DNA of 63,720 nucleotides, the filler included, from Psammoneis japonica (lineage: Eukaryota): the NCBI GenBank assembly GCA_008632985.1. It is 3 parts of 3 records of this genome, joined end to end, with 100 filler letters (N's around TTAATTAATTAA, not from the genome) between each part and the next. Parts side by side here need not be neighbours in the genome. Positions count along the whole stretch, not along the records: positions 1 to 22,220 come from QPGO01000441.1; 2 more parts are not named here. One strand, written 5' to 3'. This document shows, in pieces, positions 1-49,700 of the stretch. Below the pieces are notes generated by a model. That model worked only from the letters and a program-made list of their open reading frames with translations, did not search any database and had not been told where the DNA came from. The stretch's first letter is position 1. Each line of letters starts with the position of its first letter. The position numbers were made by a program, and so were the translations under genes.

Positions 1-1229
1 TTGCACTCACTTCGTCAGGCTTGAAGAGAAGGATCGAGGGACTCCCAAGCGCCGAAACAAGACGTCCATCAAGAAAGCAACGGCGAAGAAAACAAAATGA
101 AACGGGCAGTCAGGTTTTTCATAATCAGTTGCACAGAGCGCAATAAAACCATTTTGCAAACCACTGCACAAAACTGTAAGGAGAGACTTAAGACAGCAGC
201 ATTCTAGACGCAGTGACAGCCACCAGCCCATGAGGGCTTTACGACCAATTCAGAACACATCAGTGGCCAATCCTTTAGCAAAATGGCAGACAAGCTGTGC
301 AGCAGAGCTGACAGGCTCAATCTTGATCTCCAAAGCCTCAACCCCAGTGCAAAACCAGTGGCATGGAATGCCGATGGGCTTGGTTCATGGGGACAATTTA
401 GGCATGCAAGCAAGCAGCAGCTTGCACGCACACTGTTGTGCTCCCAAGAATCAGAGAATTTGAGGTGACTTCATGCTGTCATCTTCATCTGCAAGCAGCA
501 ATGACAGTGCAAATGAAGCCATGCCAACAATGGATTTCTTCCTCCCAAAGCAAGCAGGAGAAAAGAGCCCAAGTGTGGTTGGCATTGAGACAGACAGACA
601 AGCCGGCAAAAAAATCAGAGCCAGTCAGTCCTGCTGCCTGTGACATGCTGTCAACGAGTTGTTGCATTGAGTGCTTGTGATGTGTGTGGCTTTCTTTTCA
701 ACTCTGGCAACAAAAAACATGCAACTGCATTTGAAAGAGTGCCAGAAGCAAGAACGCAGTTCTTTGCAGCATGGAAGACAACCACAGTGGGTTGGACAGA
801 CATGGACACTTGGTGCTGCTAGACTCTGCACTTTGGCTCACACCATTGGCTTGAGCACCGCATGGTCCTGGCAGTGTGCAGGGCAATGGGTGAAACAGGT
901 GGATGAGCTTGAGGACCTGGTTGCCTTGCACAAAGATGTGTTGTTTCACCTTGCAATTCTTGCAGGCTGCATGGCACTGCACTCCCTTTGCCTGTGCATC
1001 ATTTTGGCATGAACATCTGAGCCTTTGTCAGCTTTTTTCAGATGCTGCTGACTTTGGATGGAATTTCTTTTTTGCTCAGACAGGAAGAACACATCAGTGG
1101 CAGGCTGCCTCTGGTGCAGAACATCTCTTCACCAAACACAGCAATTTTCTCATTTGGGAAATCTGTGTTGAGAGTTGAGCAAACATTGGCTGTCTCATTG
1201 AGAGAAATGATTTTGACAGATTGTCACAC

Positions 1230-2330
1230 TGCCACAGGTGCCCAGCTTGCAAGGGAAATGAAAAATGTAGAGACAACAGCAGCACTGGGTTGGGCAAACA
1301 AAAGCTCATGCCCTGTGAGCAGCACATCAATGCCACACCACCTTTGCAGGTTTTCTTGACCCACTGACAACTGCTGGAAGGCAAGGCATGCTGTGAAGCT
1401 TGACATCATGGCACTGCAATGACAGGCACATTTTGAGGTTTGTGGAAGACATTTTCAAAGAGAAGCCCAGAAGCATGCAGAAAGCAGTGTTCTGGAGCTT
1501 GGTGATGCAAAAAAAAGCAGCAAATGAGTCTCCTTCAGGGACCACAATTTTGCCTGTTGCAGCTTCCAGGGAGTGTGCGCACTGAAGATGTTGCAACTTG
1601 CTTCAAAAACAAATGCAAAGCAATTGCAGGCATCACAGCAGTGGTTCCACACATTTCCTGATTTTTCAACATCACCATGCATCACCTCTTGACATTTCAT
1701 TGAGAATCAACCAACCGTGGCTCCAAAGCATGTGGTGCTGGGATGGAAATCTAGCAAATGTGCTCTGGGAATGCTGACCATCTTGTTGTGGCAAATGATT
1801 TGACACATTGTTGTGCTGCCATGGGTGGCCAGCTTTCCAGGAAAACAAAACTTGTGAAAATGATGTGGATGCCAGTGGGGTGGGAAATGAAAGCTCACAC
1901 CCTGCATGCAAGCAACATGTCCATGCACAGTTTCTTGCAGGTTTTCTTGACCTGCTGACAACAGCTTGAAGGCTGGACATGCTGTGGAGCTTGGCAGTGT
2001 GATGCTGCCACAACAAACACCTTTTGGCTTTTGCAGAAGTTGTTTCTGAAGTTCAAAGAAGCATGTGAAAGCAACATCCTGGTGTGCTCAGTGTCGTGGG
2101 GAAATTGGCAAATGAATCTCCTTGAAAAAACCCATGACTTTGCCCACTGCAGTTTCTGGTTTGTGCACAGAACATGTTGCATCTCATTCCAAGAACATTC
2201 AAGGCCATTGCAGGTGCCATTGCCTGCCCCTGCATGTTCTGATTTTTCCACATTGCCAGGTGGCACTGCTTGATGTTTCATTGAGAGTCGCCCGACCATG
2301 GCTTCAAAATGTGATGGAACAGAAATCTGA
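1230..2330. repeat. Old tandem duplication, period ~590 bp
   Basis: Shared anchors: ttgcaggttttcttgacc..ctgacaac at ~1344 and ~1935; cctgatttttcaacatcacca at ~1657 vs tctgatttttccacattgcca at ~2238; tttcattgaga at ~1695 and ~2276. Confidence 0.7.
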
Positions 2331-2619
2331 CTCATGTGCTCTGGGAACACATCTCGTGCTGCCACAGAAAGCAAGGATGCCATGGGCTCCAGCCTCTTTG
2401 CTCTGGCTTTGCTTTTTTTTTGGCCCTTTCAGAGACCACCAAAAATGGCAATTGCCATCTCAGATGAAGTGACATGGCAAAAGATCAATTCCACCCTCAA
2501 CACCATTTGCCACACCCTCTGACATCTGGAACAGCACATGGCAAACCCTTTGAATGAATCTTGATTGACTTGCACACATGTTCTTCCAACACAATCCAAA
2601 GAGATGAAAGGCATCAAAG

Positions 2620-3630
2620 GTTGCAGAGCTGAGCAGAAGACCACCCAAAGAATCACAAAGCTGCTGTGGTGAGCAATGAAACATTGAAGAATGTGACTTC
2701 TAAAGCCTCCACTCTGTTCTCACCTGCAAGATCCCTTGCCAAAAAGATTAGAAAGGTTGCTGGATGAAATTGTTGCATGAGAGCAGTGTGCAAAAGCTTC
2801 GATTTGGGCACCCAACTGAAAGACCTGACAAGAGGGGAGCAAAAGGGAAACTCTCAACTTGCAAGAAATCCAAAAACTGGAGGGTTGCACTTCCATGAAG
2901 CTGCATTGGGTTTGAGGATGAAGAACTGTCAAAAAACAGAAACAAGAGACCACCCCAAATCACACAGTTGCTGCAGTGTGAGAAAGACATGAAAGGTCAC
3001 AGAGCTGAGAAACAGACACAGAAGACCACCCAGGATCATAAAGTTGCTGTGGCGCACAATTGAGTGTTGCAGAGTGTGACTTCTAAAGCCTCCATTTTGT
3101 TCTCACCCATGAGATCCCCAGCTAAAAAGATTGGAAAGGTTGCTGGGTGAAATTGTTGCATGAGGAAGGCATGCAGAAGCTTTCAATTTGGGCATCCAAC
3201 TGAACGACCTGAAAGAGGGGAGCAAAAGGGAAACTCTTGACTTGCAAGAAATCCAAAAACTGAAAGGTTGCACTCCCTTGATGCAGCTGTGTTGGGTTTG
3301 ACGATGAAGAGCTGTCAAGAAACAGACACAGGAAACCACCCTGGATGATCACACAGTTGCTGCGGCAAGCAATGAAATGTTGAAGAGCATGCAATGGCCT
3401 TCAAGGCCTCTGCACTGTTCTTGCCTGTAAGATCCCTGGCCAAAAAGATCAGTGGGACAGTTGAGTGAAATTTTTGCATGAGAGTGGTGCATGAAGCTTT
3501 CAATCAGGGTGTCTGACTGGACAACCCAACAAGAGGGGAGCAAAAGGGAACTCTTGACATGCAAAAAACTCAAAACAAAATGATTGGACTCCCGTGATGC
3601 AGCTGCAGTGGGATCAAGGATGAAAAGAGT
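2620..3630. repeat. Three diverged tandem copies, ~320-380 bp
   Basis: Recurrent anchors gtgacttctaaagcctcca (~2693, ~3076) and agaggggagcaaaaggga (~2832, ~3214, ~3532). Confidence 0.8.
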
Positions 3631-3940
3631 GCTTCTTGTGTGGACAGTTGCAGAAAAAGCACAGCACTTGACAGAGCAGATGGACTCCTCCAGTCCATGG
3701 GATGTTGCTGGGTGCCAAGAACACACCACAGAAAATGAGGCACATCACTTGGCCAAGGCCAAAAGGCAAATTGACAGGACCTCACTGGGTGGTCAACTCG
3801 GGACAGCTGATGGGCTGATTGAAGACACTGCAGAAGGCTCCTGAAAAAGCACATCCCTTGGCTTTGCGGACAATCAAGGTAATGGGCATTGCCAGGTGTC
3901 AATTGCAGGACATCTGATCAGCTTGTCAATGGCACCACAG

Positions 3941-5052
3941 AGCTCAAGGTGCAGCCAATGAAAAGGGATTGCAAAAAATGCTGTGTCCAAGTGTGGACAT
4001 TCCCTTGGCTCTCTCTGCAGAAGTGGCTGATGTCAGTGATGGAGTTGGATCGGATTCGGATTTGGCGCAGCAGTCGCAGGACTTGGACTTGCACTCAGTG
4101 CAGCAGCAGGAAAGGTGGAGCAGGTGGGCCAAGCTGATTTGGAAATGAGGAGCAGGGAATGGTGTTGGGTTGCTTGTGTGGCAGGATTGGGCTTGGTGCA
4201 ATGTCGTCAGATCCAACCAATGAACCCTCATCAATCTCAAGGGTTGCTGTGTGGTGCAAGAGAGCTCAAGGTGCAGCCAATGAAAAGGGATTGCTAAAAA
4301 ATGCTACGTCCAAGTGCGGACATTCCCTTGGCTCTCTTTGTCCCAAGCAGAATTGGCCAATGTCAGTGATGGAGTTGGATCGGATTCGGATTCAGCGCAA
4401 CAGTGGGAGCACTTTGATTCGGACTTGGCGCAGTGGTGCAAGAGGCAGAGCAGGTGGGCCAATGGCCGATTCGAAATTGGTGAGCAGGGGATGGTGTCGG
4501 ATTGACTGTGCGGCAGGATCGGGCTTGGCACGCTGTCGTCATGTCCAACCAATGAACCCTCATCAAATTAAGGGTTGCTGTGTGGGACAAGAGAGCTCAA
4601 GGTGCAGCCAACGAAAAGGGATTGCTAAAAAAATGCTACGTCCAAGTGTGGACATTCCCTTGGCTCTCTCTGTCCCAAGCAGAAGTGGCTAATGTCGGTG
4701 ATGGAGTTGGATCGGATTCGGATTCGGCGTAGTAGTGGGAGGACTAGATTCGGACTCGGTACAGCAGTGCAAGAGGTGGAGCAGATGGGCCAAGCCGATT
4801 CGGAATTGGTGAGTAGGGAACGGTGTCGGGTTGTTTGTGTGGCAGGATCGGGCTCAGTACGCTGTTGCCAGATCCAACCAATAAACCCTCATCAAATTAA
4901 GGGTTGCTGTGTGGGACAAGAGAGCTCAAGGTGCAGCCAACGAAAAGGGATTGCTAAAAAAATGCTACGTCCAAGTGTGGACATTCCCTTGGCTCTCTCT
5001 GTCCCAAGCAGAAGTGGCTAATGTCGGTGATGGAGTTGGATCGGATTCGGAT
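3941..5052. repeat. Tandem array of ~330-bp units (3 full + 1 partial, running into an assembly gap)
   Basis: Unit start agctcaaggtgcagccaa(c/t)gaaaagggattgc at ~3941, ~4263, ~4594, ~4923; shared internal ggagttggatcggattcggat. Confidence 0.92.
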
Positions 5053-6752
5053 NNNNNNNNNNNNNNNNNNNNNNNNNNNNNNNNNNNNNNNNNNNNNNNN
5101 NNNNNNNNNNNNNNNNNNNNNNNNNNNNNNNNNNNNNNNNNNNNNNNNNNNNNNNNNNNNNNNNNNNNNNNNNNNNNNNNNNNNNNNNNNNNNNNNNNNN
5201 NNNNNNNNNNNNNNNNNNNNNNNNNNNNNNNNNNNNNNNNNNNNNNNNNNNNNNNNNNNNNNNNNNNNNNNNNNNNNNNNNNNNNNNNNNNNNNNNNNNN
5301 NNNNNNNNNNNNNNNNNNNNNNNNNNNNNNNNNNNNNNNNNNNNNNNNNNNNNNNNNNNNNNNNNNNNNNNNNNNNNNNNNNNNNNNNNNNNNNNNNNNN
5401 NNNNNNNNNNNNNNNNNNNNNNNNNNNNNNNNNNNNNNNNNNNNNNNNNNNNNNNNNNNNNNNNNNNNNNNNNNNNNNNNNNNNNNNNNNNNNNNNNNNN
5501 NNNNNNNNNNNNNNNNNNNNNNNNNNNNNNNNNNNNNNNNNNNNNNNNNNNNNNNNNNCCCGGAAGCCACTCGATTTCGAAGCTCTGAAAATGGCTGGCT
5601 GCTGGCTGGGTCGCCTGTCGCCTGCCTCCATGTCGCCTGTCGCCAACCGCCGACGATGGTGACCTTGAGCAAGTAATCGTTTGCTCCAAACCTTCATTAG
5701 CTTTCGTACACCCACTGCACTTTGTTTCGCGTGCTATGCGGAATTCAGCCTCACGCTCTTGAATCAAAATTTTTGCCTTTTCGTTTCTATTCCCACAATG
5801 ATATGATGTTGCCGGGCTGGCAATGGCAACTAGCGTGCAAAAATAATGACCCTCGTCGTGCCGACAGCCGACAGTATATTGTGACAACGACCATCAAATT
5901 GGTGTTATGTCTAGTCTGGTCTGCTCCATGGGCAATGCGGTGCTGTAGATGGCTAGAGTTGTCGTGGTGAATTCGTCTTGGACGCTTGAACTCACAATAT
6001 TTCCGTGGCGGACGTTGCAACGAGACTACACATTGTCTATCCACCATGTTTCGTGAAGGGTTATCAAGACCAGGGTGGAGACTGGAGTTCATCGTTGTGT
6101 TTGTGGAAATAAGAATGCCAAGTTGGTTCTTTTGCTGTCAGTTGTCGTGAGGACGGTGAGGAGGAACAGAGCGTTGAAAGACGTGGGACGTGGCCAGTCA
6201 CTTGACCTTTGCCGATTCCATTTACATTTGTTCTCAGCCGGCCATACTAAGGAGGCTAACACAAACAGAGCGAAGGTACGAATGATATTATTGAACAAGG
6301 GGGGAGATAGATTTCAACCAAAGCAAGTGGTTTGCTGTTCTGGGTGTTCGCTTGTTGTTTCGTAAGGTTTTCACTCGTACGCAGCTATGCTCACAAACTG
6401 TACTTATAGCTCAAATCTTTTCTCGTTTCAGAATAGATACTTTCCCAAAAATAATGGCGCTCTACTTACACGCATTCAATTTTGCACGCAACGCCTTCTC
6501 GTGATGTCATTTTTGTGATCTAAATTGGCTATTTTGTGGTGCCCGCTTTTAGCTACGGTACCGTACAGTGGTTTGCTCAACTACGACGTCCGACCAGCAA
6601 AAAGATGGCGCTGCTTTGCTCCTCCTGTTGCTCTAGATTCTTCTCTAGCTAGAGCTAGCTAGTCAAAATACCGGTATAATTTATACTTTCCAATTTATTT
6701 TCTTGTGTAGTGAAAACGGTGTCGTTGCAATAGTCGTAGGATTCGAACACAT

Positions 6753-9700
6753 CTATTCGGTCGAAGCAGCCATTTCTGAGAGCCTCTTTTCTTCCTCCCT
6801 CTTCGCCTGTTTGGCCTCTTTCCTTCTCTTTTTGTTTCTTGCGCGTCTCTGTCTCCTGTTTTGTTTTATCCGTTCTTGTTGTTCATCTAAGGGTTCTTGT
6901 CTCTTGAGTACATATGAAGCTGTGTCGTCCTCCTCCATTGGACTTGCTCCCACGGTCGGTTCCACTTGTCTTACAACCTTGTTGGCATCTGAAGAAGTGT
7001 CTTCCTTATCTTTTTGACTTAATGCCGCTGTCGGATCCACTTTCCTTGTGATCTTGAATATGCTGTCGATGATATTTCGCTGATCAAATAACGTCCAAAA
7101 GATCTCTCTGGCTGTCTGTTTCGCGTTGTCGTCTCGGCGATTCAACAACTCCCGATCCCTTTCATCAAGCTTGACATAGGTAAGACGAGGCTGAGTGTCC
7201 ATAAGGATGCCATTCTCTGCAAAATATGCCACTGCGTGTTTGACTTTCCTGCCAACCTCGTCCCAAAAATCAATGATTACAAGATACACGCCCTCTCCTT
7301 TTAGAAGCAATTCCAGTTTACTTTGGTTTTCGTTGTGGCGTAACTTTTGCGCTTCGAATCCTTTACTCTCAAAAAACGGTATGAATTTCTTGGCCGATAC
7401 CCATTCGCGTCTTGGAGCTAATTCGTTTCGAATCGCCAGCTTAGAAATATCTTGTTTCGCTCTCTCCTTTTTGTCCGGAATCATGCGCTTCAGAATACGA
7501 AATGAAGTGTCCGGAATGCAATATCCGACCGGCACGCGCCTTTTGTCGTAACAAAATCCGTGTTCTTTAGCCTCGGCTAGGGGCATAATTCTAGCACCCA
7601 CAACCGCGTTATTTCTTCTGTTCACACGTTCTTTTCTCGACGGTTTGGCAGTTTCCTTGACAGGAGCAACTACCTCAGAGTCCCCGGTCGCAGTAGCAGA
7701 CGGATCCTCCAAGCGTACGCCGCTCAAGTCACCAATTGTAGCTGTTTCGGTATCCTCAGTAGAGACATTGGAGGCTCCTGCCTCGGCGGCAGAGTAGCCC
7801 ACAGTGCTAGCTCCGCGGTCGCCAACTGTCGTGCAGTATCCGGGCGCATTGACTTCTCCTTCCTCTTCTTCATCAGAGTCATAGAGAAACCGCTGCGATT
7901 TATCGTCACCAGAAGATTCATTGCCTATGTCTGTATTCAGCAAATGATCTGAAACTGATTTGCAGCAGATTGCGTCAACAACAATTACGGTCGTGCAAGT
8001 AGCAACAACACGAGATATTCTCTTACCTATAATTCGATTGCGTTTTCTTGCGGGACTTTCTCCGTTCAAGGAGGCCATTGCATCGGATATGTTTGCAGCT
8101 TGTGACGATCTAGAGGCAACACTGTGCACTTGTATCGCTGATTCTGAAATGGCAGAATCTTTGGTGTTGGGCTTGCAGCGGTCATCGACTTCTTCGTTCC
8201 ATCCTCGCTCGGGTCTTGCGTTGGTAATGAGTCCGTGACGGTCACAGCGGTTTCATTTTGTGGACAACATTCACTGTTCTTGCCCTTCGGCATTTCCGAA
8301 TCCAGGGTAAAAACTGATTCTTTCGAAGAAATGTCTGAGAATTTGCTGGTTGGATCCATTGACCCATCGGAGGTAACGTTCTTAGTCGTTCTAGCGGGTG
8401 CCTTCGAAGCAAGGCCACACCCGTCGGACGCTCCTCCAATGAACGAGCTACAGGTACCTAATCCACTAGATTCACGGTCGCCGGCTTTCGCGAAAGGCGT
8501 GGGTGCCTTGGCCTGCTCCTCTCCCTCTTCATGGGAGATAACAAGCAGCCCTTTATTGTCGCAAGAAGATCCATTGTCTGCGTCTATTTGAAACAAAGGA
8601 GAAGGCACTGGCAAGGTATGAAGGAGGTCGTGGCAACAACAATCAATTCGCACAGGCAGCAACAAAAAGCGAGTCGATTTTCTTACCTTGAACTTGGTCG
8701 CGGCTTCTTGCCGAACATGGTCCCTGTAAGTTGGTCATCTCATCAGTTCCGTTCGCAACTTGGGGTACTCCAGAGGCAAGATTGCGCACTCGTGTGACTG
8801 ATGCGGCTATAACGGTGCTATCAACGACTTCTTTATTTGCTTCTTCTTCTCCCTTCACCTCGAACGAATCTGCATCGTACACACTCAATCGAGACATGGA
8901 ACTGTCATTTCTTATAAGATTTTTCCCCGTGTGGTCGTAGTCGTTTGCCGTATCTTCGGTTGGCTCTGCATTGTAATGGGAAAAAGGAGGTATGAAATGT
9001 TTGGTTGGCCCTTCCTTGTTGTGGGCAACAGGAAACTGACGCGGTGAAGCGGATGTCTTCTTGAGGGCGTCCCGTTCTTGTCCATCAGCAGTGGGCGTGC
9101 TTCCTATACCCATGGTTGCACCAATCAAAAAAGTGGCAGAAGGAGATTTCCCACTTCGCACTTCGGATCCACTGGCAACTTGAGTTGTGTCCTCCCTTGA
9201 TGTTGATCCATTGGCGACAACTTCCACTGTCGTAGCAGCCCGGGTGTTGATAGATGCGCCATCTACTAAAGGATAGCAGATTCAAGACAAAAATTGACAA
9301 GAATGAGCATTGGGTAAAGAAAAAACACAAGATGCAAACAAATCAAACCAATGTCTTACCGCGAACATTTGAAACAGTGTGCCCTGACAAGCCACTGTTT
9401 TCAGGACTCTTATTTGCACCTAACATTGAATCTGCGGTGGCTGCAAAGACGTTTTCATTTGTGGCAGGTGTCGCTTTTGCGGAAGGACCACTCCGTTTGG
9501 AGCTGGATTTGTCGAGGCCAGCATCCACTGTCGACGCAGTGCGTACTCTATCAAGTGATGCGGAATTTGCTTTACTGCGGCTGGTAGACCTGACACCTCT
9601 GTTGGGCGGAGCTTTGGACGAAATGCAGTTGACTTTGTTTTGTTCAGCTTCTTGGTTTTCCTTTTCGTTCGTCTCGCAAACACCCGGAATGGGATAGAGT

Positions 9701-10630
9701 GGCCGATGCGTTTTCTTCTTGGGTGGAGTGGCTGCAGAAGAAAATGTCCTTGTCCGAGTTGAATGGTTGCCAGAGGAAGCGCGGCGAAGGCTTTGATGAT
9801 TCGTGCTATTGACAAGCACCGGGCGGCCTCCAGTGCCCCCTTGCGTCTTGAATCTAGCTGGGCTGGTATCACGCTGATTCACAACACCAGACGCGTCCAA
9901 GACAACGGCACTCCCGGCTTTCGTGTCAGACGATAATCCGTTTGCCTCTAGAGCTCTGCTCGATTCCATAGTATTGCTCGAAGTTTGCTTGGGAGTGACT
10001 GCCGGTCGTATCGTTGACAAAATAATGCCAGGCAGAAGGTGCCTTCGCTATTTCTAAATTCAAAAGAAAGAGATGAAGTCGATGAGAAGAAAGTGTCGTG
10101 ATCGCGCTGGCAACAAAATGAAATGCGTGTCGCTTACCTTGATTTCGTTTTCGAATTTCATTACTGGGCCCTTGAAATGGTTTGAAATCGTTGCAAACTC
10201 GAGTCGTGGTCAGAGCTTTCGTTTCTTCTTCCGACAATCCAATCGGCCTCCTAACCAAGTAGGGTCGTTGAAGTGTCGCATTCCCGAGAATAGGCCCTAG
10301 GCTTTTATCAATCTCCGTCCACGTCAGATATTCTTGGTATTGGATAGTTTCAGCGCGGCCCGTCTCACGCGAGCTTTGGCGGGCGCGGAGGGGCTCTGAA
10401 GACCGTTTCGAGTCGAGCTCTCTTTGGTGATTCCTCACCCCGTTTGAATGATACTTTGGAGCTTTGTTCGCTTCATCAGATAACTTCCGTCGCTTAGACC
10501 AATTCCGATCCTTGTCTCGTTTTCCCCTCCTCCTTTTAGATATGTGCGAATCAAGAGTCAGTTTTTCGTAGAGAGGATTTGCCGACGGCGAATCTTCATC
10601 CGATGATGATGGTGCCGTGAATCTCGGCAT
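6753..10630 (-). CDS. Large multi-exon protein: Ser/Thr/acidic low-complexity body and a C-terminal globular domain resembling a papain-fold (Cys-His-Asp) peptidase
   Basis: Chain of minus-strand ORFs (9926-10774, 9343-10020, 8643-9227, 8066-8665, 6753-8129) with GTAAG donors near 10137, 9359 and 8686. C-terminal domain GYCIPDTSFRIL...GEGVYLVII...KHAVAYFAENGILMD, then a basic tail. Exon model approximate, with at least one frameshift. Confidence 0.5.
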
Positions 10631-11403
10631 ATTCAATTCGAACCGCTTCCAGCAGCTGCACAAGAGTTGGATAAGAAAACGAAGCTTGCATGTGAGAGGG
10701 AGACTTGATAGGGAGAAGTGCGAATGAACACAACAGTGATACAAAGCAATTGTTACCTTTTTCAAGCAGGCCAACGGTTTTTCGCGGCGATTTGGATTTG
10801 GAAAGCCGACGTTTCAAACGACGTCCTTTGATTTTGTTGCTTGACAAAGAGCTTCTCCCAACGTTGCTACAAGCAAGGCACGAGACGTGAGATAATGAAT
10901 AAGGATACAAGACGCAAGGAAAACAAGAAGGGAAGGCGAAAGAGCAACACTCACCGATTGCAGGCAAGTCAACAACGATAACAACAAAGAACGCTATGAG
11001 ACTTGATGTCAATGTTTGATGTTCAGTGCTGTGACTTCGAACTCTAGTTCGCGTGTTGAGTCGTCGTTGCAAATATCAAGTAAACGTACATTTGTCTGAT
11101 GACGTCAGGGGTGACGTAGAAGGCATAAATAAGGCCGGCTATTCAGCAGTTCCTCTCAGCCAGATAGAAGAAGAAGAGAAAAGGAAAAGGAAGGAAAAAA
11201 CATTGATGGTTTGAAAGGGTGCACTGCAGCACCGCAGTGCGCACAGTAATGAAGACGGACGCAGACAGGTGCAGATGCGCTGCGTGGAATTTGGTGCGAA
11301 GTTTCATGCGTTTGCGTGCGCAGAAGGATGTGGAGCGCCAATGGCTGGAATGAAGCAGCACACCACACAGCAGTCAGTGCAGCTCTGTCATCACGGCGCT
11401 AGA

Positions 11404-13034: not shown

Positions 13035-13099
13035 GTACAGAAAGTCAGCAAATTTACGCAAATTTAGCAAGTTATTTTGCACTGTCACAGTCGCCTGAG
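12973..13099. repeat. 64-bp tandem direct repeat between the convergent SET and TET/JBP-like genes
   Basis: acagaaagtcggtaaatttgcgcaaat...cacagtcgcctgag (12973-13035) and acagaaagtcagcaaatttacgcaaat...cacagtcgcctgag (13037-13099). Confidence 0.85.
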
Positions 13100-15851: not shown

Positions 15852-18790
15852 GCTCCATCAAAGAGACAGCCACAATTGGAGGGTCTGACCCAGGCAACAC
15901 CTCATGTTGGTCATGTTGAATTTGTCCAAGAGGAGGAAGGCACAGAGACAACAAACTTGAAAACAGCTGTTGCAATGCTCACCATGCAAAGCAAGATGAT
16001 TTGTCACCTCTGCCAGAAGATGGAAATGCTGCAGAGGGAGGCAAAATGCCGGTGGCTCTTGTTTGAAGGCTGTCACAGCAGAAAAAAGATGAGGAAACAA
16101 ACCTTGCAACAAACAAACACTCTGCAAGCAAAAACACTGTTGAACAGTGCCCAGACCTCATGAGGAATTTTGCTCTCATGCATGCATGAGAACCCAAGAA
16201 ACTTGCCTCCAAAAAGCATCCCATGATCTGTTGCAAGAAGCGTGCTTGTCTGGTCTTCTGTGAATTGCAGACCTCCAGCAGAGTCAATCCAGCATCCAAA
16301 GACAAGCTCAGCTCCAGCACTGTGGATCTGAGATCATCTGCATGTTGGAAATCCAAACAAAGTCCATTGCTTTTGCTCATGTTTGTGAAGGCCTCATTGC
16401 TGCTGCAGCACTTGTTTGCTCAAAAACTCTTGAATGGCCAGACTTCAGCACAGCTGTTGCAGCACTGCTTTGACATGAAACAACAAAGCAAGAAGTTGAG
16501 TTGATCAAGAGCCATTTTGTGGCAATGACGTGCATGCACAACAGCTGATGTTTGGTGCAAGGTGCCTGTGAGATGCTGTTTGATGATCTTGGATTTCTTA
16601 GAAGCAAGGTGCTGAGGCTGCTGATGGTGGCACAAAATGACCAAGATGTTCTAAGTCAGATGTTTGCTCCCACACCATGTGGCTGTCAGCAAACAAAGTG
16701 CAAAGTGAAAGAGTTGAGAAAATGCTCAGTTTGAACAAAACAAAGTTGCCATCTCATTCAAGCTCCTGGCTTTCAACAGAAGACATCAAAGACAAGTTGC
16801 TGGAAGACCAACTAACATCGATGTGCTGCCAGTTTTCTGTTGCAAAATTTGAAAGCTTCCCCCAGTTCTTGGTGGCCTTTGTTCATGTTGGAGCTCTCAT
16901 CTGTTTTGTGTGATGAAGAGAACAGACAATTGGTGAGTTCACGCAAGACAGCCTGCCAGCAGCAAGCAATGTGGGAGCTTTTTTTGCACATGATGAGCCA
17001 AACTTACAATGGAAGAAAAGAGCTTGTGCAAAGTGCAACCTGACAAAGGTGGCAAACACATCAAATGCAAAATTTGAAAATGGTTTTTGAATGGCTGAAA
17101 ATTGCAACAGCCTTGAGTTTCTTTGACTCAAATGCTTTGCACTTGAGGACAGTGCAGCTGGTGACAGCATTTTTGATTTTGGCTCGGGCAGTGCTGGGAG
17201 CACTCTTGAGAATGCAAAGTTGTGGAAAGCCACAGGTGCAATGAAAGAGAAACAGCTTTCAATGGTGGGGCTTTCATTTGAACTTGTGTGTGACTTGGTG
17301 ATTGTGCCACTGGACAACCCTGGGTTTGAGAGCTGTGCCATGGTTGTGCTGGCCAAGACTGAGTGAAAGAGCAGTTGACCAAAACACACTGCAGCTCTTT
17401 GTCATGTGGCACCCATCATTGCTGGTTGCTGGGGTGGAGGCCCCCATTTTTTGTGATTGGAGCACTGACAGCCAAAGTGAGTGCTTTGTGCACTGCACAT
17501 TTTTTCTGTGGCACTGGCAATGGGAGACATTGTTTGTTTGTCAGAGCTTGTCAGCTGGTGCAAAATTTGTGGCCAGCTGAAGAGCAATGAGTTTCTTCTG
17601 TCACATTTCTTCCAGACCATTGATCCTTTTGCAAGAGCTGATTTTCCCATTTCCCATTTGTTCCACGTGCAGGTGGGCTTTGTCACAAATAATTTTTGCT
17701 CCCAATCAAGCACAAATGGGTCACAACAAAGCTGAGTGATCCTGGCAAAATCCAACCAAAGCCAAACCACAACTGGCGCTGCCCTGTTGACAAATGTTTC
17801 ACCACACAGTTTCATGGACATCAGCAAACTGGAGCCCACAATTGGGAAAGTGAGCTCACCCTGCCCAGGGCTGCAAATTTGTTTAAAGTCCACAAATGTC
17901 CCAGGGCTCCATTGACTCAAAAGTGTCATTGCTCAACAACGCGCTCAACACCTCATGAGTTCAGTCAATTTCCAGAATGTGTTTGCCATCTGCAGACCCA
18001 ATGATGCAAAGACCCTTTTGCCGTGTGAGTTTTCACTGTTTGCAAACAGCTCCTGAAATGAGATGATGAAGAACTCCTGGGTTCTCTGCAATGCACCTGG
18101 TCCCACTGAGTGCTTGCAAACAAGGGCGGGGGTTGGGCAAAGGAAAAAACTCAACAGCGCCCCTTTGGCCAGTCATTTGGAAATCATGTTGAAGCCCTGC
18201 CAGTGCAGGGCCCCAGACATGCCATCCATCAAAGGGATGAGTTGTGAGAGACTGAGTGTTTTGTCATGTGCAGCGCTGTCTGTTTCAAACCTGGAAGCCC
18301 CCCATTGCCTTTCTTGTGCTTCTTTGCTGAGGCCAGAGAAGTTGATCTAAGGACACACCCTCATTGTTGCAACAAGCAGCACAGGAGAGCTGAGGCATGA
18401 AACAGCACATCAACAGGAACAAGCAGAGCTCACACTGGCACTGTGCACCATTTTAGTTGGATGATGCAGATGGCGACATGACCTTCCATGCAGCAACAAT
18501 GGAAGCATCATGCATGCCACCCGTGCAATAAAAAGCGAAGTCGAAAACGCAATGAAATGTGCAGCAGCACTGCAAAATGCTGGCCCTTTTAATCAAAACT
18601 GCAAAGCCACGGATAACACAAACAAAGCACGATAACCTAAAAGGAAGATGCTGCAGTGCGAAAATACTTTCTTGTCACATTCTAATTGCAGATTAAAAGA
18701 TGTGACACATTCCACAAAACCAAAGAGAATTCTCCAGGCCTCGTCACTGACACGTGCGACGCCAAAGCGTCAAACCTCCACAAACCTAGG
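15852..18790. mobile_element. Heavily degenerate region depleted in TpA and CpG (probable transposon relic)
   Basis: Same composition as 200-5052. No intact ORF. Composition returns to normal near 18800. Confidence 0.5.
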
Positions 18791-18952
18791 ACATTCCTCT
18801 TGAGTTAGAGAGTGACATCGAAACACTCTGCACCGCTCCATATAACGGTCCTTTGTGTAACAATGGGCGTCATAGCACTTTTCAAAAGTACAAGTATAGC
18901 AAAAGGAGCCTTGTCAGGTCTCACACAATCGACAACGAAAGAGATGAAATGG

Positions 18953-19695: not shown

Positions 19696-19729
<34 letters not shown>

Positions 19730-44210: not shown

Positions 44211-47200
44211 AGAATGCACTCATGAAAAGAGCACAAAATGGCAGCTGTGATGAATGTCCATCTGTCCCCTCATTTCCAGCAACACTGACAGAAGACAGTC
44301 TTGAATTTTGTTCAGGCCAAAATGCATCCAAACAACATGAAAAAGAACACAGTGATTGGGGCTCATTGGGCACATCCTTTGGGTCTGCAAGGGTGGCCAG
44401 GCCTCATGCAAGAGATGAGCATGATCCCAGAAGCCATTCTTCCCACTGCTGCTTTGTGGAGAACAAGCCACAAATTGCACAACACACCAGAAAGAGCAGA
44501 GTCAGTTTCAACAGCATCATCAATCAAAGCAAGTCAGCCCATTGTTTGGCCTGCCACCAAAATTGTCAACACATGCAGGTGTCGAGCTCAAAATGCCCAA
44601 CTCCAACAAGAATGCAGCCTTTGAGCACTGCAGAAAAGGGGAGCTGTGGCACAGACAAAAGAGCTGATGATCTTTGCACACACTTCTTTCCAACTGGCAA
44701 CCCCCCATTGATGCACTTTGCTCTGCCACAGAGAAAAAAGCTTTCCAAACATTTCAAACATTTGCTGCAGGAGTGGGGAGCTTCTGTGACACAGTGCAGC
44801 ACAGCATTCTTTGAACTGTCAAAACAATCTCAGCCTTGTGGGCCTCTTCAACAAGCTGCTGATTTTCTGTGCCTTCCTCATGTGTGGCAGAGAACTGCTG
44901 TTTCACCACACAATCAAAGCCGGCCAACTCATGTTGCTCCTCATGCCAGAGCTGCAAAACATTGTCAACCAAGGTTGTGAGTGAGCTGAAGGATGGAAAA
45001 CTTCCAAACTCCATGACCTTGTTTTTCTTTCACACTGGTCTTGATTGCTGTGCATGCAACAAAAAACAATGTTGGTGCTGCGAGACCATGGAGGCAAGCC
45101 TGGTTTGAAATTTTGAGCAAGCTTCCAAGCAGAGCTTGCCAGGTGTTGCATGGAGAGCAACAGTTTGTGCATTGGAGCACAATCATGCTGCTGTTGCAGA
45201 AAGTTTGGAGGTGAGATGAGTTGGGGATGTACTTGCCAATGTTGTCTTTTTGACTGTTCCCCACTGAGCCACCACAACAGCAACCTTTTGTGTTTTGACT
45301 TCATTTCTGCTGTCTCCATCTTTTGCGTGTGTGAGGTTGACAGCTGGGCACAGCACACATCTCCTGCTGCTCATGGGCATTGTTTGGAGCACCTGTGTCA
45401 ACTTCTGATGAATTCTGTGCATCGCTTGTGATTGCTGCTGCCAGCAAATTTCTGTCCTCCCAATCTGTGAGCAGTGCCCAAGACTCAAAGAACACAATTG
45501 TTCCTTCAAGAAGGCATGAAGGCATCATCCATTGAAATGGCAAAGATGTCTTGAAGATTGCAAGGAGCTGGCCAACATCAGAAGGTGTGATGGTCTTTCT
45601 CTGCAGGAATGAGCAGCACGATGATGCTGCCTCTCTTTGACCTTGTCATGTGAAAAAAATGCACCCAACCCCATTTTCCTCTTGAAGATGGCCATCAGCT
45701 GCTGGTGTCTTCAGCAGGTCATGGCATCATCCAAACAAGCCACTGTGCACAAAGAACCTCTCACTCTGACAATTTGACAACCCAAGGAGCATGTTCTTTC
45801 AAGACACAGATCCCAGCTCCACCACAATTTTCTGAAATTAAGGTGCGACAACTGATCTTGATGCAAGAGATGCAGGAGCTGTGCCAGGAAAACCATGTTG
45901 CAATGTGAGCCCTTTTTGGCATGGCTGCCAATGAAAGTCCAAGGGGTTTGAGCAGAAGTGGGCAACACAGCATCATTGACAAACTGCTGCACAACCCCAA
46001 AGTTGAGTTTGCTGGTGCTTGTTGCTTCTTGTGTAGAATGTGTTGCCATTTTTTGCTTGGACCTGCCAGTCTTGAAAGATCATGGCTCATCAATGTGTCA
46101 CCCAGAAGTTCAAAAGAGAAAATGAGTCAGCCAGGAGTCCACTGCAAATGACCCAAATTTCAGAGTGAGGGTTTTGGCTGGGTTTGTTGGTGTTGCCACC
46201 CTTGTTTGACATTTCCATGTGCTTGACTTGGTGCTTGAGAGCATGGCAAACTTTGGTCATCACGCAGCCACAGGAGCTCACTCTGTGCAGCATGCACTTT
46301 TGGCAGCCTTCTTTTTTGACTCATGATCAGTGACTCAGTGTTGTCTGTTCTGCAGCTCTGTTTGTGTGGAGCTTCACAGAGTGTTTGGTCCAGGATGCCC
46401 CCCCTCAAACTGCTGCTGCTCAACTCACTCACAGAATGAAACAAATTTGTTTGTGGGGTGTGAGCCAATGTGTTGAAGTCCTGCAGAGTGATGTGGCACT
46501 GCCAATGCGCATGTTTGGTGCTTGGCACTTGAGCACGTTGACCATCTCATCAGCCAGCAATGGCAGCAGAATTGCTGAGCTGTTGTCCATCACATGTGTG
46601 GAAACTGGCCAGCACAACTTTTGAACTCAAAACCTCTTGTTCCATGCTTGCAAATCTTGACATCAGCTGGCTTGCATGTGAAATGTCACAGACAATGATT
46701 CAAAGATGCTCTGCATCACTTTTGTCATGCAGCTCTCCAATGACAAGCTCTTCTTTGTCATGCCACACTCTTCAGCAGAAGTGCTCTCAGATGCCATCAG
46801 AACACATGCACAAGCAAAAACTCAGCTGGGCCAGGGTGCTGTTTTGGCCTGAGAACATGAACTCAGAGCAGCACTGGAAGTTCATCTGCTCCTTGAAGAA
46901 CTGTCCAGGTCTGCCAGATTGTTGCAGAGCTTGTGCACTCAGCAGGCACTCACCCTTTTCTGCAGATCCCTCTTTTTGCTGGACAACTTCTTCATGGTCA
47001 GTTCTGTGGCATCAGTCTGGCTGACATGCTGCAGCTCTTCAACATCACAGATTTGCAACCTCGCACACCATCATGTGATGGCAACATTTCTTGCTGCGCC
47101 CCATGCCCCAACAGGTGTCAAAATTGAGATGGGCAAAACAAAAGCATTTGTGCAAAGCTCACAAGCCCACTTTGTCCCAAAGTGAGATCTCACAAACAGA

Positions 47201-49700
47201 TGCCAAGTTCCCACTTGTTTGCATTTTAGATCATGTCAAAATTGCAGCTGTTTGCATTTTGTGTTGTGCCCCATGAGCCATGGTCACATGTGTGCTCCAG
47301 ACATCCTTCTAGATTTGCCTTAGTTGGGAGCCACACCCTCCTTGGATGGTGCTTCACAGGCACACCTGAGCAGTGCTGCACTGCTGCACACAAGGGGCAG
47401 CTGCATGGTGTTGCCATGCCGGCCTGTGGGTGCATGCTGTGTGATTGCATTTTTCCTCATTTTTGTGAGAAGAGTGATGGACTCTGTCAACTGGCTGGGA
47501 GCAAGCACTGTCTGCAAATCTACACAGGCTGATGGCCAGCAGACAGGCTGATGGCTTTTGCACTGCTCTGGCTTTTTTCATGACCACATGGACATTTGAA
47601 ACACAGCTTGGTTGCATTGGCTGAACAAAAAAACCCAAACCTGTCATGTGACCCTTCAACCACCAGGGGGAGCAAATCTCCACGGGTGGACATTTGCTCT
47701 GCTTGAGGATTCGTGATGTGTCGTGCACATTTACAATGATGCAATGAGCACATTGTAAAAATGTCACATGGTGCACAATCTGCGTAAAGTGCACCTTGTG
47801 CATTTGCTCGTTGGGAGCAAACATCCACCGGTGGAGATTTGCTCCAAGGGTGTGGTGTCATTGCTCCATTGTTTGTGACAGCAATTCATGACAACCTGCA
47901 TGGTTAAAGGTTGAGATTTAGTTCCTCTCTGTTCATGGATCAAGCTTGCAAAAACCCTGTGGCAAAAGTCGACATTGAACTTTCTAAATTGCAAAAATGG
48001 GTTCCCCCAGATTTTCATTGAGTGCAAGTTCCAAAACAAAATCGTGCAAATGAAATGTTGTTCATGTCTGAAATTGCTTCATTTGCCATGTTTGTGATGC
48101 AAGCAAGCAAATCTCCACCCATGGAGATTTGCTCAAGTCTGGTGGTTGAAGGGTTGAAGTGCTGTCACACCTTTGCCCAGCAAACACCGGGGCATCTCCT
48201 TGGAGATGCCTCGGCAGTGTCATGGTGTCTTCCATCCTGCCAGACAATGAGGGCTTCCTTTGGCTGGCCTTGTTTCTGCTCGTCTCATCCATCCTTCAAC
48301 CCATTTTGCTGCTGCACTTGCGCAGCCACTCTTGGTCCAGCCAAGGAGGTCCTCTCCTTGCTGGGCTTGGAGTCTTGGCTGCAATCCAGTGCACCCTGCA
48401 AGGGGTGTGGCAGAAGTTGTTGCAACTGGCTGGCTGTGGTGCCTCTGGATGGAGACTCCCAATGGAAATGGTCAAAACACAGAACACAACACTCAGAGTT
48501 TTCTGCAGTCTTGCTGGTGACACACATGTTGGTTGTGCCACAACCACAGAGGACAGTTGCATTTGGGAAAAAAATCAATGGGAGCCACAAAGGAAGCCAA
48601 AAGGGATTCTGGAATTTGCTTGAGTGACAGATGCCAACTGGCACAATGAGGCATCTCATTTGCACACCTTGAGGAACTGCAGCAAGAACAGCAAGATCAC
48701 CACTCAAAGCAGCAAGCTTGGTTGGCCAGCAGATGGAAGCAAGGTGGCACAGGACTTGCAGGTGTGAAACAAGAAGCCATGTGGATGGACTTTGTCAGTG
48801 GTCTGAAAAACATTTGTCTCGTGTGGAAACCACCATGCCGGATCCTGCGTGGACACACTGACATGTGCTGCAAAAGGATGGTCATTGCTCAGTGCCAAAG
48901 GAAGACTCACTTTGATGCTCATCAGCACTGCAACAGAGGAGGCACTTTCACAAAATGGAGTGAAGCACTTGATTGGCGGATGGAGATGAAGAAGGTTGTT
49001 GAGGACCAATGGGGGTTGCATGCAAGCAGTTTGGAGCATTGACGCAACAGTCGTCGGCGGGGTTGTTGCTGTCATGCACAGAATTTACACTGGAATCCAT
49101 GCAGAAAATTTCTTGAGTCTGCAGAAAATTGTGAAAAAATTTCAATGAGCATGTGAACCAGTTATTTTCCACTTAGAAGTGCTGCTTGATGTGCTCAAGT
49201 GAGGGTGTGCCGCTGGTTGAAATGGCCAGAATGGCCTTGAGAGACCCAGCGAAATGCCGTCTGAGAAGAAGGGCAACATCAGTGCGGGAGCACACACACA
49301 GAAACACACACAGGTGTTGTTGGTGGGTGGCTGTGACAGATTTGTGCATTGGCTGAACAAGAAGACTGAGCCATGAAAAATGGATTGAGGAAACCACCCT
49401 GACTGGCAAAAAAGCTTTTGTCGTCAAAATGTGTTGCTGAGGCATTTAAACAGGAATTTTTATGGCGTCCATTTTTGAATGCAAAAATCACTCACATTCA
49501 CACTGATTGCACACAAAAACGAGAACATGAAGCACCGTGATCAAAGCACGATGATGACGGCAATGTCGACATTCCTCCAAAATGCAGTGGTCCGTTCTCG
49601 AACATTTGGTGTGTGTGTGTGTGTGACCTTTGACACACAACAAACATGAAATGAATGAGAGTTGGCAGATGGACCACCTCCGTCACAGACTCACATGGAT
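44211..49700. mobile_element. Heavily degenerate repeat region depleted in TpA and CpG (nested transposon relics)
   Basis: Near absence of TA and CG over ~5 kb; dense spurious Cys/His-rich ORFs; contains a TIR element at 47652-48153. Confidence 0.6.
47652..48153. mobile_element. piggyBac-like non-autonomous TIR element (MITE relic), ~500 bp
   Basis: Left end cccttcaaccaccag, right end ctggtggttgaaggg (exact reverse complements). Flanks GTGA and TTGA, consistent with decayed TTAA target sites. Three copies of a ~30-bp palindrome gagcaaatctccac-nn-gtggagatttgctc at ~47670, ~47815 and ~48105. Confidence 0.7.

Follow-up and report, generated by a model that had tools for sequence, protein, structure and literature searches.

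Kilobase-scale islands nearly free of TpA and CpG in a diatom genome: probable in situ conversion of both steps to TpG and CpA

Introduction

A tandem array of 329-bp units in Psammoneis japonica (assembly GCA_008632985.1) raises the question of why neighboring copies of one repeat differ chiefly at TpA and CpG steps, and by what route the differences converge on TpG and CpA. The array was analyzed within a window of 63,720 nucleotides, which is the whole stretch of DNA under study and consists of three parts joined end to end; the eRF1 gene identifies the host as a diatom. The evidence for the islands described below comes from this one window. Experimental evidence of hypermutation specific to TpA has so far been reported once, in 2026, from the rhizarian alga Bigelowiella natans.

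A tandem array at the edge of an island

Tandem Repeats Finder reported a 329-bp unit with 3.4 copies and 87% matches at 3939-5052. The array was annotated as follows:

3940..5052, no strand assigned: tandem array c1-c4, lying across the right-hand boundary of island 1 and extending to the N gap at 5053-5558

The array was cut into c1 (3940-4261), c2 (4262-4592), c3 (4593-4921), and c4 (4922-5052; 131 bp, truncated by the N gap 5053-5558), and the pieces were then aligned, giving 65 variable positions among 320 gap-free columns. An earlier note on this DNA had claimed that the copies differ mostly at TA and CG and converge on TG/CA, and all five pairs of strings that it quoted are present in the alignment. 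Its claim that the copies nearest the gap are the least changed agrees with the TA/CG counts per copy, which are 0/5 in c1, 3/14 in c2, 11/15 in c3, and 3/5 in the 131 bp of c4. With c3 as the reference, taken as the least-changed state, all ten aligned TpA steps were changed in c1, the innermost copy (6 to TpG, 4 to CpA). Counted by base, A/T>G/C changes affected 10/20 positions in TpA and 8/133 (6%) of the other A/T positions (Fisher p=3e-6). CpG was changed at 12 of 15 sites in the same comparison (by base, 12/30 versus 5/137, or 4%, of other C/G; p=5e-7), while between c3 and c2 the changes affected 8/11 TpA and 5/15 CpG steps. All of these changes were deduced by paralog comparison, not from observed new mutations. 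Since the array sits on the island edge, its copies record successive stages, and at this edge TpA loss appears to precede CpG loss; the array may serve as a natural time series.

The earlier note had also stated that the same TA is seen as TG in one copy and as CA in another. Two such TA/TG/CA three-state sites were found across three copies (columns 97-98 and 268-269), along with two CG/TG/CA three-state sites (columns 132-133 and 165-166), and adjacent double differences of CA versus TG occur at four array sites. Parsimony and composition would make TA the state that was lost, a polarity drawn from the base composition, the four three-state sites, and majority rule. Columns 168-169 (TG, CG, TA) do not fit one-way loss and need a reverse step.

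Three islands depleted in both TpA and CpG

The claim that the changes are restricted to a domain was borne out on a larger scale. The array lies at the margin of an island of 4 kb, and the window contains two further islands with sharp edges:

251..4250, no strand assigned: island 1, 4.0 kb near-free of TpA and CpG, built from old, degenerate tandem repeats with units of ~310-590 bp
15852..18500, no strand assigned: island 2, at least 2.6 kb, its left end being the N gap 15405-15851
44211..49000, no strand assigned: island 3, 4.8 kb plus a weaker tail to ~49500, its left end being the N/linker gap 44111-44210

Island 1 contains 12 TA, 25 CG, 455 TG, and 442 CA, with observed/expected ratios (O/E) of 0.044, 0.111, 1.90, and 1.73, respectively. 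Island 2 contains 8 TA, 15 CG, 308 TG, and 291 CA (O/E 0.043 for TA and 0.104 for CG), with ordinary composition returning at ~18500-18800, and island 3 contains 13 TA, 29 CG, 570 TG, and 550 CA (O/E 0.040, 0.105, 1.89, and 1.86). The flanks have O/E values of 0.58 for TA and 1.00 for CG. Across the intervals 1001-4000, 16001-19000, and 44001-49000, TA O/E ranges from 0.00 to 0.31, and TG and CA O/E from 1.42 to 2.02. When the three islands were pooled (11,439 bp), 33 TpA were observed versus 444 expected (binomial p=1e-146), and 69 CpG versus 668 (binomial p=1e-201), the expected counts being derived from the frequencies in the flanks. The edges are sharp to ~250-500 bp, TpA and CpG losses have common boundaries at four edges, and the genes that adjoin the islands are normal.

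The pooled counts of TG (1333) and CA (1283) indicate that both strands were hit about equally, each product standing at ~1.8-1.9 times expectation. The number of YpR steps per bp is 0.2377 in the islands versus 0.2359 in the flanks, and the combined TA and CG deficit (~1010) is matched by the TG and CA excess (~1030; arithmetic on the pooled counts). As the YpR total is unchanged, TA and CG steps have undergone conversion rather than avoidance. A simulation in which 93% of TA and 90% of CG in flank sequence were converted gave CA and TG at 1.67 and 1.61 times their flank levels, compared with 1.69 and 1.61 observed. Some dinucleotides outside the YpR class departed from the simulation (GC, 1.27 observed versus 0.98 simulated; TC, 0.73 versus 0.94), so that the island ancestor was not flank-like in every respect, or further processes acted. 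The order of TG and CA along the islands is random (runs-test z of 0.98, 0.55, and 0.01), and strand-coordinated mutation bursts were ruled out by these tests (z 0.0-1.0).

Change after duplication

Self-BLAST of island 1 yielded internal repeat pairs that are 67-81% identical, in which CA<->TG double mismatches are the dominant class of adjacent doubles. The pair 1205-1771 and 1793-2347 has 25 of these in 536 aligned bp, and three other in-island pairs have 7-9 each, compared with 5 in 1088 bp of an ordinary control pair. When all YpR states were collapsed, in-island pairs gained 5-10 points of identity, versus 3.6 for the control. These comparisons indicate that the repeats were changed after their duplication. 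No repeat partner for islands 2 and 3 was found within the window by self-BLAST, also after YpR collapse.

Island 3 carries an insert of a different kind:

47651..48154, no strand assigned: foldback, MITE-like unit, 504 bp, inside island 3

The unit is bounded by a perfect terminal inverted repeat of 16 nt, contains a 32-nt palindrome in three copies, and has 56-nt arms of 87.5% identity. It retains 6 TA and 8 CG in its 504 bp, versus 7 TA and 21 CG in the remaining 4286 bp of the island. This partial depletion was counted in favor of a process that would depend on age.

A flank rule for surviving TpA

The TpA steps that survive in the islands are concentrated in the context YTAR, which accounts for 21/33 of them versus 215/1095 in the flanks (p=8e-8); if the survivors had arisen by back-mutation, the expected YTAR share would be 0.228. 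Survival by flank class, given as observed/expected, is 1/128 for RtaY, 3/115 for YtaY, 8/114 for RtaR, and 21/87 for YtaR, and these values fit a multiplicative two-strand model (arithmetic). Survival of TpA thus depends strongly on its flanks, ranging from 0.8% to 24%, whereas that of CpG (7-15%) does not. The concentration of survivors in YTAR suggests that the TpA process prefers the A of 5'-T-A-Y-3', which on the opposite strand corresponds to the T of 5'-R-T-A-3'. An excess was also seen among the products (RCAR plus YTGY, 406, versus RTGR plus YCAY, 162), with TpA-derived and CpG-derived changes mixed in both sums.

The repeat at 10673-15404, with a TA O/E of 0.25 and normal CG, was considered as a further candidate for TpA editing and rejected, its surviving TA being free of YTAR skew (12/59, p=0.87). 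Its low TA was treated as compositional, like that of the cadherin-like gene. Three ORFs of this repeat and one overlapping frame gave no Pfam match above threshold.

Assembly support, protein content, and a metagenome survey

Contigs of 441, 424, and 4075 bp, built by another assembler from the same reads (three runs of one sample, possibly the source sample), reproduce the islands with 1-3 differing letters. The 4075-bp contig spans 15860-19688 with 3 differing letters; it bridges island 2 and its normal flank, and both are thus one molecule. Loose ends rich in TA/CG at 3782-3870, seen in the same comparison, suggest that some repeat families are represented both inside islands and in ordinary DNA. 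A Pfam scan (E<=0.1) of 103 island ORF pieces (stop-to-stop, at least 70 aa) found none that reached the gathering score, nor any recognizable protein remnant of a transposon, a virus, or a reverse transcriptase. Rfam searches of the whole window at gathering thresholds gave 0 matches.

Multi-kb islands were found at 0 of 80 metagenome eRF1 loci, a set of 361,133 bp with many diatom-like members and mostly 1.5-2 kb transcript-like contigs, which is too small for absence of the trait elsewhere to be concluded. Two 350-bp low windows in this set were rejected as islands, one (L011, 101-450) as a mild case and the other (L041, 6201-6550) as a coding simple repeat.

Alternative explanations

Both losses might stem from one pathway, either a TET/JBP-type dioxygenase that oxidizes the two 5-methylpyrimidines standing before a purine (5mC in CpG, T in TpA), C>T and T>C then following from mispairing or incorrect repair, or an ADAT2/TadA-type deaminase acting on A and C in DNA. 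5hmU or 5fU would give T>C. The two losses end together within ~250-500 bp at four edges, and both palindromic YpR steps, and nothing else, were erased, as one pathway would have it. The accessible text of a dinoflagellate study describes a TET/JBP enzyme as the source of 5hmU, a mark that is enriched on repeats, serves to silence transposons, overlaps with 5mC, and favors TA and TC in C. cohnii (PMC11572971), and the B. natans authors cite ADAT2 enzymes with deaminase activity on A as well as C (10.64898/2026.01.13.699255, as far as its text was accessible). However, the losses are uncoupled at the array edge, where c2 has 8/11 TpA but 5/15 CpG changed; survival depends on flanks for TpA (0.8% to 24%) but not for CpG (7-15%); and B. 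natans exhibits TpA hypermutation without a raised GC>AT rate, according to the same portion of the preprint. A single pathway is accordingly considered improbable. The TA loss could instead have been imported, if the RNA of a retroelement had been A-to-I hyper-edited as double-stranded RNA and then reverse-transcribed. The near equality of strands (TG 1333, CA 1283) is what double-stranded RNA predicts, and a 5' U beside the edited A is a known ADAR preference (cited in the accessible part of 10.64898/2026.01.13.699255). Editing before integration is nevertheless very hard to reconcile with tandem copies that differ in place by position, along a gradient over 1.1 kb, with in-island paralogs whose shared sites became CA in one paralog but TG in its partner, and with the Pfam scan of 103 ORF pieces, in which no reverse transcriptase remnant was found. 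TA with a 3' purine is, moreover, the resistant context in the islands. The 3' preference of ADARs is for G, and to our knowledge these enzymes are limited to animals.

The composition might also have been inherited, the islands deriving from a source that never held TA or CG, such as a virus or an RNA in which CpG and UpA were selected against. Joint suppression of CpG and UpA, with CpA/UpG compensation, is described for RNA viruses and cytoplasmic RNA in the accessible text of PMC3829696. The depletion in the islands is extreme (O/E 0.04 for TA and 0.11 for CG), however, and its edge crosses one tandem array; the paralogs differ by CA<->TG doubles, YpR totals are conserved, the islands are physically joined to the DNA of the host, and the 103 ORF pieces gave no viral protein signal in Pfam. 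Inherited composition therefore has scarcely any claim to belief. Least credible of all is a sequencing or assembly artefact. Two islands adjoin assembly gaps, the third ends in one, and the supporting contigs all come from source-sample reads; against this, the islands were reproduced by an independent assembler from the same reads (441, 424, and 4075 bp), and the adjoining genes are normal. We know of no chemistry that turns TA and CG into TG/CA in kilobase-sized blocks.

Comparison with known systems

The closest precedent is the chlorarachniophyte B. natans, in whose mutation-accumulation lines TpA to TpG/CpA hypermutation of integrated viral DNA arises de novo (Mettrop et al., bioRxiv 10.64898/2026.01.13.699255, 2026 preprint). 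In the accessible text of that preprint, two viral regions carry 231 mutations, of which 230 are A>G or T>C changes, every one of them in a TpA step; the genome has 124 TpA-depleted, CpA+TpG-enriched clusters; the GC>AT rate of hypermutable regions is not raised; and certain lines have a de novo TpA rate of ~1e-7 to 1e-6 per site per generation. The earlier note had proposed a TpA-specific T:A>C:G process, beside CpG decay, that it did not recognize as described. Such a process is supported, but the same spectrum is found in the preprint, so that its novelty does not stand. The diatom case resembles B. natans in the A:T>G:C change at TpA that yields TpG/CpA (here by paralog comparison, c3 to c1 10/10 and c3 to c2 8/11), in its kb-scale domains with normal flanks, and in its TpA-poor, CpA+TpG-rich footprint; all three diatom islands pass the cluster thresholds given in the accessible text of the preprint. 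It differs in host (a stramenopile versus a rhizarian) and in degree, TpA O/E being 0.04 here, near-complete, compared with a Rho of 0.45 in the NCLDV region. The ten-fold, co-extensive CpG depletion sets it further apart, the term "CpG" being absent from the preprint text, and CpG loss in the islands was read as a second, separate process. The targets in B. natans are integrated NCLDV and virophage DNA, whereas here an old tandem repeat and a MITE-like unit were found, with 0/103 matches in Pfam and 0 in Rfam. A flank preference of TAY over TAR is deduced here, and mutations were observed in real time in B. natans, whereas the diatom case is known from sequence alone.

Deamination of 5mC, as in vertebrate and plant repeats, matches the CpG O/E of 0.11 with TG/CA gain and the CG/TG/CA three-state sites, but it covers only ~60% of the conversions (599 of ~1010) and cannot remove TpA. 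Diatoms methylate transposons, with CG methylation, and have a DNMT4 related to RID, according to the accessible text of PMC9998398. RIP in Neurospora and other fungi is likewise a domain-restricted transition hypermutation with a dinucleotide context that leaves degenerate repeats; it converts CpA to TpA, however, creating TpA and lowering GC, whereas here TpA was destroyed (O/E 0.04) and CpA/TpG were gained (O/E 1.8-1.9), the direction opposite to RIP that the earlier note had described. ADAR and APOBEC, which act on animal retroelements and viruses, share deaminase-driven clustered transitions against selfish nucleic acids and, for ADAR, the 5' U preference (from the accessible preprint text), but here chromosomal DNA would be changed in situ, the TG/CA order is random, and TA with a purine is resistant. 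Dinoflagellate 5-hydroxymethyluracil, the repeat-enriched, transposon-silencing mark made by TET/JBP, overlaps 5mC and favors T in TpA by older C. cohnii work cited in PMC11572971. It is similar as a base modification of the SAR lineage that favors TpA and lies on repeats, and it differs as a modification, not a reported mutation process; the accessible text of PMC11572971 claims no TpA depletion. A literature search returned no report of TpA depletion in diatoms or stramenopiles, and none of co-extensive CpG loss or of the flank rule; a search combining hydroxymethyluracil, dinoflagellate, and TpA found no paper, and a term search of PMC11804724 gave no passage on mutation spectra.

Proposed mechanism

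The array and the three islands are likely to be diatom nuclear DNA in which two context-specific transition processes have come near completion in situ. Both would act inside sharply bounded intergenic domains. One, CpG>TpG/CpA, would most simply be 5-methylcytosine deamination in CG-methylated silent DNA; the other, TpA>TpG/CpA, would turn a single base pair of each TpA step from A:T into G:C, with the B. natans-type signature. CpG decay and TpA editing would thus both be aimed at the same silent islands. As each site resolves independently to TG or CA, the YpR total would be kept while TA and CG vanish and TG and CA nearly double. A role for methylation, the action of an enzyme, and a possible function in defense are inferences in this reading.

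A broader proposal, to be taken as speculative and on balance doubtful, is that TpA-directed editing or modification of silent DNA belongs to an old chromatin-defense pathway shared across the SAR supergroup. One system would then underlie the islands of the diatom, the hypermutable regions of Bigelowiella, and dinoflagellate 5hmU at TpA on repeats; in diatoms it would act on CG-methylation domains and eventually erase both palindromic YpR steps, and the TAY/RTA flank rule would reflect which sequences its enzyme prefers. A saturated footprint of this signature in a diatom would mean that the process extends beyond Bigelowiella. It would allow lineages to be compared for deaminase or dioxygenase genes that are common to island-bearing lineages and missing elsewhere, and it would move the question to a group in which many genomes and transformable model species are available. 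The flank rule, TAY being mutable and YTAR resistant, would offer a concrete specificity for candidate enzymes.

Consequences for annotation

The footprint also affects annotation and the dating of repeats, through spurious ORFs and through hidden repeat homology, of which YpR collapse recovers 5-10 identity points. With the stop codons TAA and TAG lost from such islands, long spurious ORFs arise. Island 3 has five stop-to-stop frames of 155-201 aa, plus a 255-aa frame at 44213-44977. The latter is rich in Cys, His, and Gln, as expected of TG/CA-rich DNA.

Extent and composition of the depleted islands

A dinucleotide profile of the whole window revealed three domains (islands) that are nearly devoid of TpA and CpG.

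Islands poor in TpA and CpG
Island 1: 251-4250
Island 2: 15852-18500
Island 3: 44211-49000, with a weaker tail to about 49500

The islands sum to 11,439 bp and contain 33 TA and 69 CG steps, whereas step frequencies in the ordinary flanks (28,292 bp) would give 444 and 668 (binomial p = 1e-146 and 1e-201, respectively), the evidence base being one 64-kb window. Observed/expected ratios in the islands were 0.042 for TA, 0.107 for CG, 1.89 for TG, and 1.78 for CA, versus 0.58, 1.00, 1.13, and 1.09 in the flanks. At every island edge, TA and CG counts rise again jointly, within one or two 250-bp bins, and the right-hand edge of island 1 is the exact position of the tandem array from which the earlier note had read TpA to TpG/CpA changes alongside CpG decay. 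That observation was confirmed, and extends from the array to all three islands. Partial TA/CG depletion with raised TG/CA was also seen in a 200-bp patch (41201-41400) and in roughly 1 kb at the window end (62750-63720); these may be small or young islands, the latter possibly extending past the window.

The islands are intergenic, and their neighbours are ordinary genes encoding eRF1, a multidomain acetyl-CoA carboxylase, a MutS homologue, and a large Big_9/cadherin-like repeat protein. All 103 island open frames of at least 70 aa stayed below the Pfam gathering score, and Rfam gave no match anywhere in the window. Island 1 consists of stacked degenerate tandem repeats; islands 2 and 3 had no partner within the window, even with the YpR steps (TA, CG, TG, and CA) collapsed. 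Assembly gaps touch or end all three islands.

Array copies as stages of change

Tandem Repeats Finder placed the array at 3939-5052 (329-bp unit, 3.4 copies, 87% matches). The array was split at its conserved start, and the copies were then aligned.

Copies of the 329-bp array, with TA and CG counts
c1: 3940-4261, TA 0, CG 5
c2: 4262-4592, TA 3, CG 14
c3: 4593-4921, TA 11, CG 15
c4: 4922-5052 (131 bp, cut off by the N gap at 5053-5558), TA 3, CG 5

All string pairs cited in the earlier note were found in this alignment, in which 65 of the 320 gap-free columns vary, and the TA/CG counts bear out its statement that the copies nearest the gap are least altered. With c3 as the reference, assumed to be the least-changed state, all 10 aligned TpA were altered in c1 (six to TpG, four to CpA), as were 12 of 15 CpG. 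Transitions of these kinds affected 8/133 other A/T and 5/137 other C/G positions, an enrichment at both TpA (Fisher p = 3e-6) and CpG (p = 5e-7). The proposal had been said to fail if T>C/A>G changes were no commoner at TpA than in other contexts; at 10/10 versus 8/133 they were strongly enriched there, and it thus passed this test. Relative to c3, 8/11 TpA were altered in c2, but only 5/15 CpG. Four array sites exist in three states (TA/TG/CA twice, CG/TG/CA twice), four carry adjacent CA versus TG double differences, and one (TG, CG, TA) requires a step in the reverse direction.

Conversion in place

The density of YpR steps was unchanged, at 0.2377 per bp in the islands versus 0.2359 in the flanks, and arithmetic on the dinucleotide counts gave a TA+CG deficit of about 1010 and a TG+CA surplus of about 1030. 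In silico conversion of 93% of TA and 90% of CG in flank sequence yielded CA and TG at 1.67 and 1.61 times flank (observed, 1.69 and 1.61) and a GC content of 0.467 (observed, 0.475), with misfits among the other dinucleotides at GC (1.27 versus 0.98) and TC (0.73 versus 0.94).

Old repeat copies of island 1 differ mainly by CA versus TG at the same two columns. There were 25 such doubles in 536 aligned bp (1205-1771 versus 1793-2347) and 7, 9, and 9 in three further island-1 pairs, compared with 5 in 1088 bp of a control gene pair of ordinary composition (37271-38369 versus 38805-39894). Independent resolution of an ancestral TA or CG in the two copies, following their duplication, would produce this pattern. 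When all YpR steps were recoded to one state, identity rose by 5-10 points for in-island pairs (e.g., from 72.5 to 82.0%) and by 3.6 for the control. The control pair is a tandem duplicate with 81% identity over 1.1 kb and long open frames; 36995-38383 had no Pfam match.

Within island 3, a foldback unit of 504 bp (47651-48154), whose 16-nt terminal inverted repeats match perfectly, is only partly depleted, with 6 TA and 8 CG, versus 7 and 21 in the remaining 4286 bp, a pattern that a later insertion would give. Reads of the source sample, put together by another assembler, gave a 4075-bp contig that spans 15860-19688 with three differing letters and bridges island 2 and normal flank, which are therefore on one molecule. 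Taken together, these sequence comparisons indicate that the change arose in place, after local duplications, to an extent that depends on position and probably also on age.

The region 45-3119 holds 39 of the 40 shown rows of contig-versus-window letter differences (716 in all). Among the shown rows there, 21 are switches between YpR states, with contig CG or TA against window TG/CA in 12, the reverse in three, and CA/TG doubles in three. These differences could reflect alleles or paralogs within the same sample. At 3782-3870, contigs from one sequencing run (X2) that fit island 1 run on into TA- and CG-rich loose ends, which by eye resemble adjoining island sequence with TA or CG replacing the window's CA/TG; less-mutated relatives of the island-1 repeats may therefore exist elsewhere in the genome.

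Influence of flanking bases

Surviving TpA steps were concentrated in Y-TA-R (21/33 in islands versus 215/1095 in flanks; Fisher p = 8e-8), a share also above the 0.228 that back-mutation of local TG and CA steps would give (binomial p = 6e-7).

TpA survivors in the islands by flanking bases
R-TA-Y: 1 versus 128 expected
Y-TA-Y: 3 versus 115 expected
R-TA-R: 8 versus 114 expected
Y-TA-R: 21 versus 87 expected

These classes fit a model in which the two base pairs of the step are struck independently, the pair with A before a pyrimidine (T-A-Y; on the other strand, R-T-A) about three times as readily. The product excess over flank expectation lay in the predicted direction (406 for RCAR+YTGY, 162 for RTGR+YCAY, with CpG-derived products inseparably included). 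Reading of the copy alignment showed four asymmetric TpA sites that obey the flank rule and one that breaks it. CpG survival was nearly flank-independent (7-15%). TG and CA were randomly ordered within the islands (runs-test z of 0.98, 0.55, and 0.01), and thus gave no sign of long strand-coordinated bursts.

Precedent and mechanism

The earlier note had proposed a TpA-targeted transition process and deemed it undescribed. The process stands; its novelty does not, given a 2026 preprint on Bigelowiella natans (Mettrop et al., bioRxiv 10.64898/2026.01.13.699255). In the mutation-accumulation lines of that study, 231 of 302 nuclear point mutations fell within integrated giant-virus and virophage regions, and 230 of these were A>G or T>C, every one at TpA. 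The hypermutation affects some lines only; 124 clusters of windows poor in TpA and rich in CpA+TpG are present in the genome, and the authors proposed an ADAT2-like adenine deaminase as the candidate enzyme. The diatom islands fall within that paper's own cluster thresholds, and extend this phenomenon, first reported in 2026, to a second lineage. They differ in losing CpG co-extensively, whereas no rise in GC>AT accompanies TpA hypermutation in B. natans; the words "CpG" (count 0), "diatom", "context", and "other species" do not occur in the preprint text. No report of TpA depletion in diatoms or stramenopiles was found in the literature covered, which excluded most subscription journals and is not proof of absence. 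As far as was found, the saturation, the co-extensive CpG loss, and the TAY flank preference suggested by the survivors are new.

According to passages of PMC9998398, diatom transposons are methylated, a state abolished by loss of DNMT5a, and DNMT4, a relative of the fungal RIP factor RID, is present in many diatoms. Passages of PMC11572971 describe a dinoflagellate TET/JBP enzyme producing 5hmU that is repeat-enriched, silences transposons, and overlaps 5mC, and cite older work in which 5hmU of C. cohnii favours TA and TC.

We consider it likely that two processes target the same silent chromatin. CpG would be lost through ordinary 5mC deamination, and TpA through an alteration of the B. natans type to one base pair of the step, with TAY preferred. 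Two processes are favoured because TpA and CpG loss are uncoupled in c2, because flanks influence TpA loss only, and because GC>AT changes are not elevated in the B. natans hypermutation. Sequence alone cannot separate deamination of adenine in DNA from oxidation of thymine, since both strike the same base pair. The coinciding boundaries of TpA and CpG loss, and the fact that 5mC and T are both 5-methylpyrimidines, make a single pathway performing both steps attractive, yet no observation here demands it, and we regard it as rather unlikely. The in-place gradient, the double differences between paralogs, and the bridging contig are poorly accommodated by editing of RNA before integration, which is improbable, by an inherited composition, which is more improbable still, and by an artefact, the least credible of the three. 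For the two processes favoured here, a role in defence against foreign DNA may be considered by analogy, an idea taken over from the B. natans precedent.

Host and genomic setting

The eRF1 frame, on the minus strand at 20336-21664, is 85-93% identical to sequences from diatoms, with named matches in Ditylum, Odontella, Rhizosolenia, Attheya, Phaeodactylum, Fragilaria, and others, and 61-68% identical to named non-diatom matches. Joints in one run skip 72-153 bases with CT..AC ends, corresponding to short GT..AG introns on the minus strand. By these sequence criteria, the window belongs to the nuclear DNA of a diatom and not to Bigelowiella. No island was found in 361 kb of other eRF1-bearing contigs, a sample too small to gauge the frequency of the trait.

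Ahead of island 2, 10673-15404 (pile-up noted at 10673-15341) has a summed word depth of 1127-4167 versus 64-351 elsewhere, depth not being equivalent to copy number; this heavy contig pile-up makes a repeated family probable. TA is scarce in this stretch (O/E 0.25) and CG normal (0.98), and no Pfam match was obtained for its ORFs (334 and 426 aa) or for a 196-aa open frame entering the N gap. By eye, a Gly-rich and an FFNN stretch of the 196-aa frame may resemble those of SAM-dependent methyltransferases.

cDNA-like X2 sequences lie at 6671-10031 (minus strand) and 18877-19269. One X2 record of 3119 bases leaves out segments of 72, 79, and 94 bases with CT..AC ends, marking short introns of an unannotated gene that had no Pfam match. 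The 100-base spacers at 22221-22320 and 44111-44210 each consist of 44 N, TTAATTAATTAA, and 44 N, an artificial six-frame stop linker joining contigs, so that adjacency across both points is not assured. Low-complexity blocks rich in CTAG/TAGAG/GAGA (19600-19760 and 43760-43850) occur near two island-bearing intergenic regions, and a metagenome contig (L011) of another diatom-like organism has a comparable CTAG-rich block at 720-830, some 2.6 kb away from eRF1; these blocks are extremely TA-rich, the opposite of the islands. At 53541-59142, within a gene region of about 51900-60750, 19.7 copies of a 285-bp unit (77% matches) encode about 20 Big_9/Cadherin_5/Cadherin_4 domains of a very large protein, placing bacterial-type adhesin repeats within a diatom nuclear gene.
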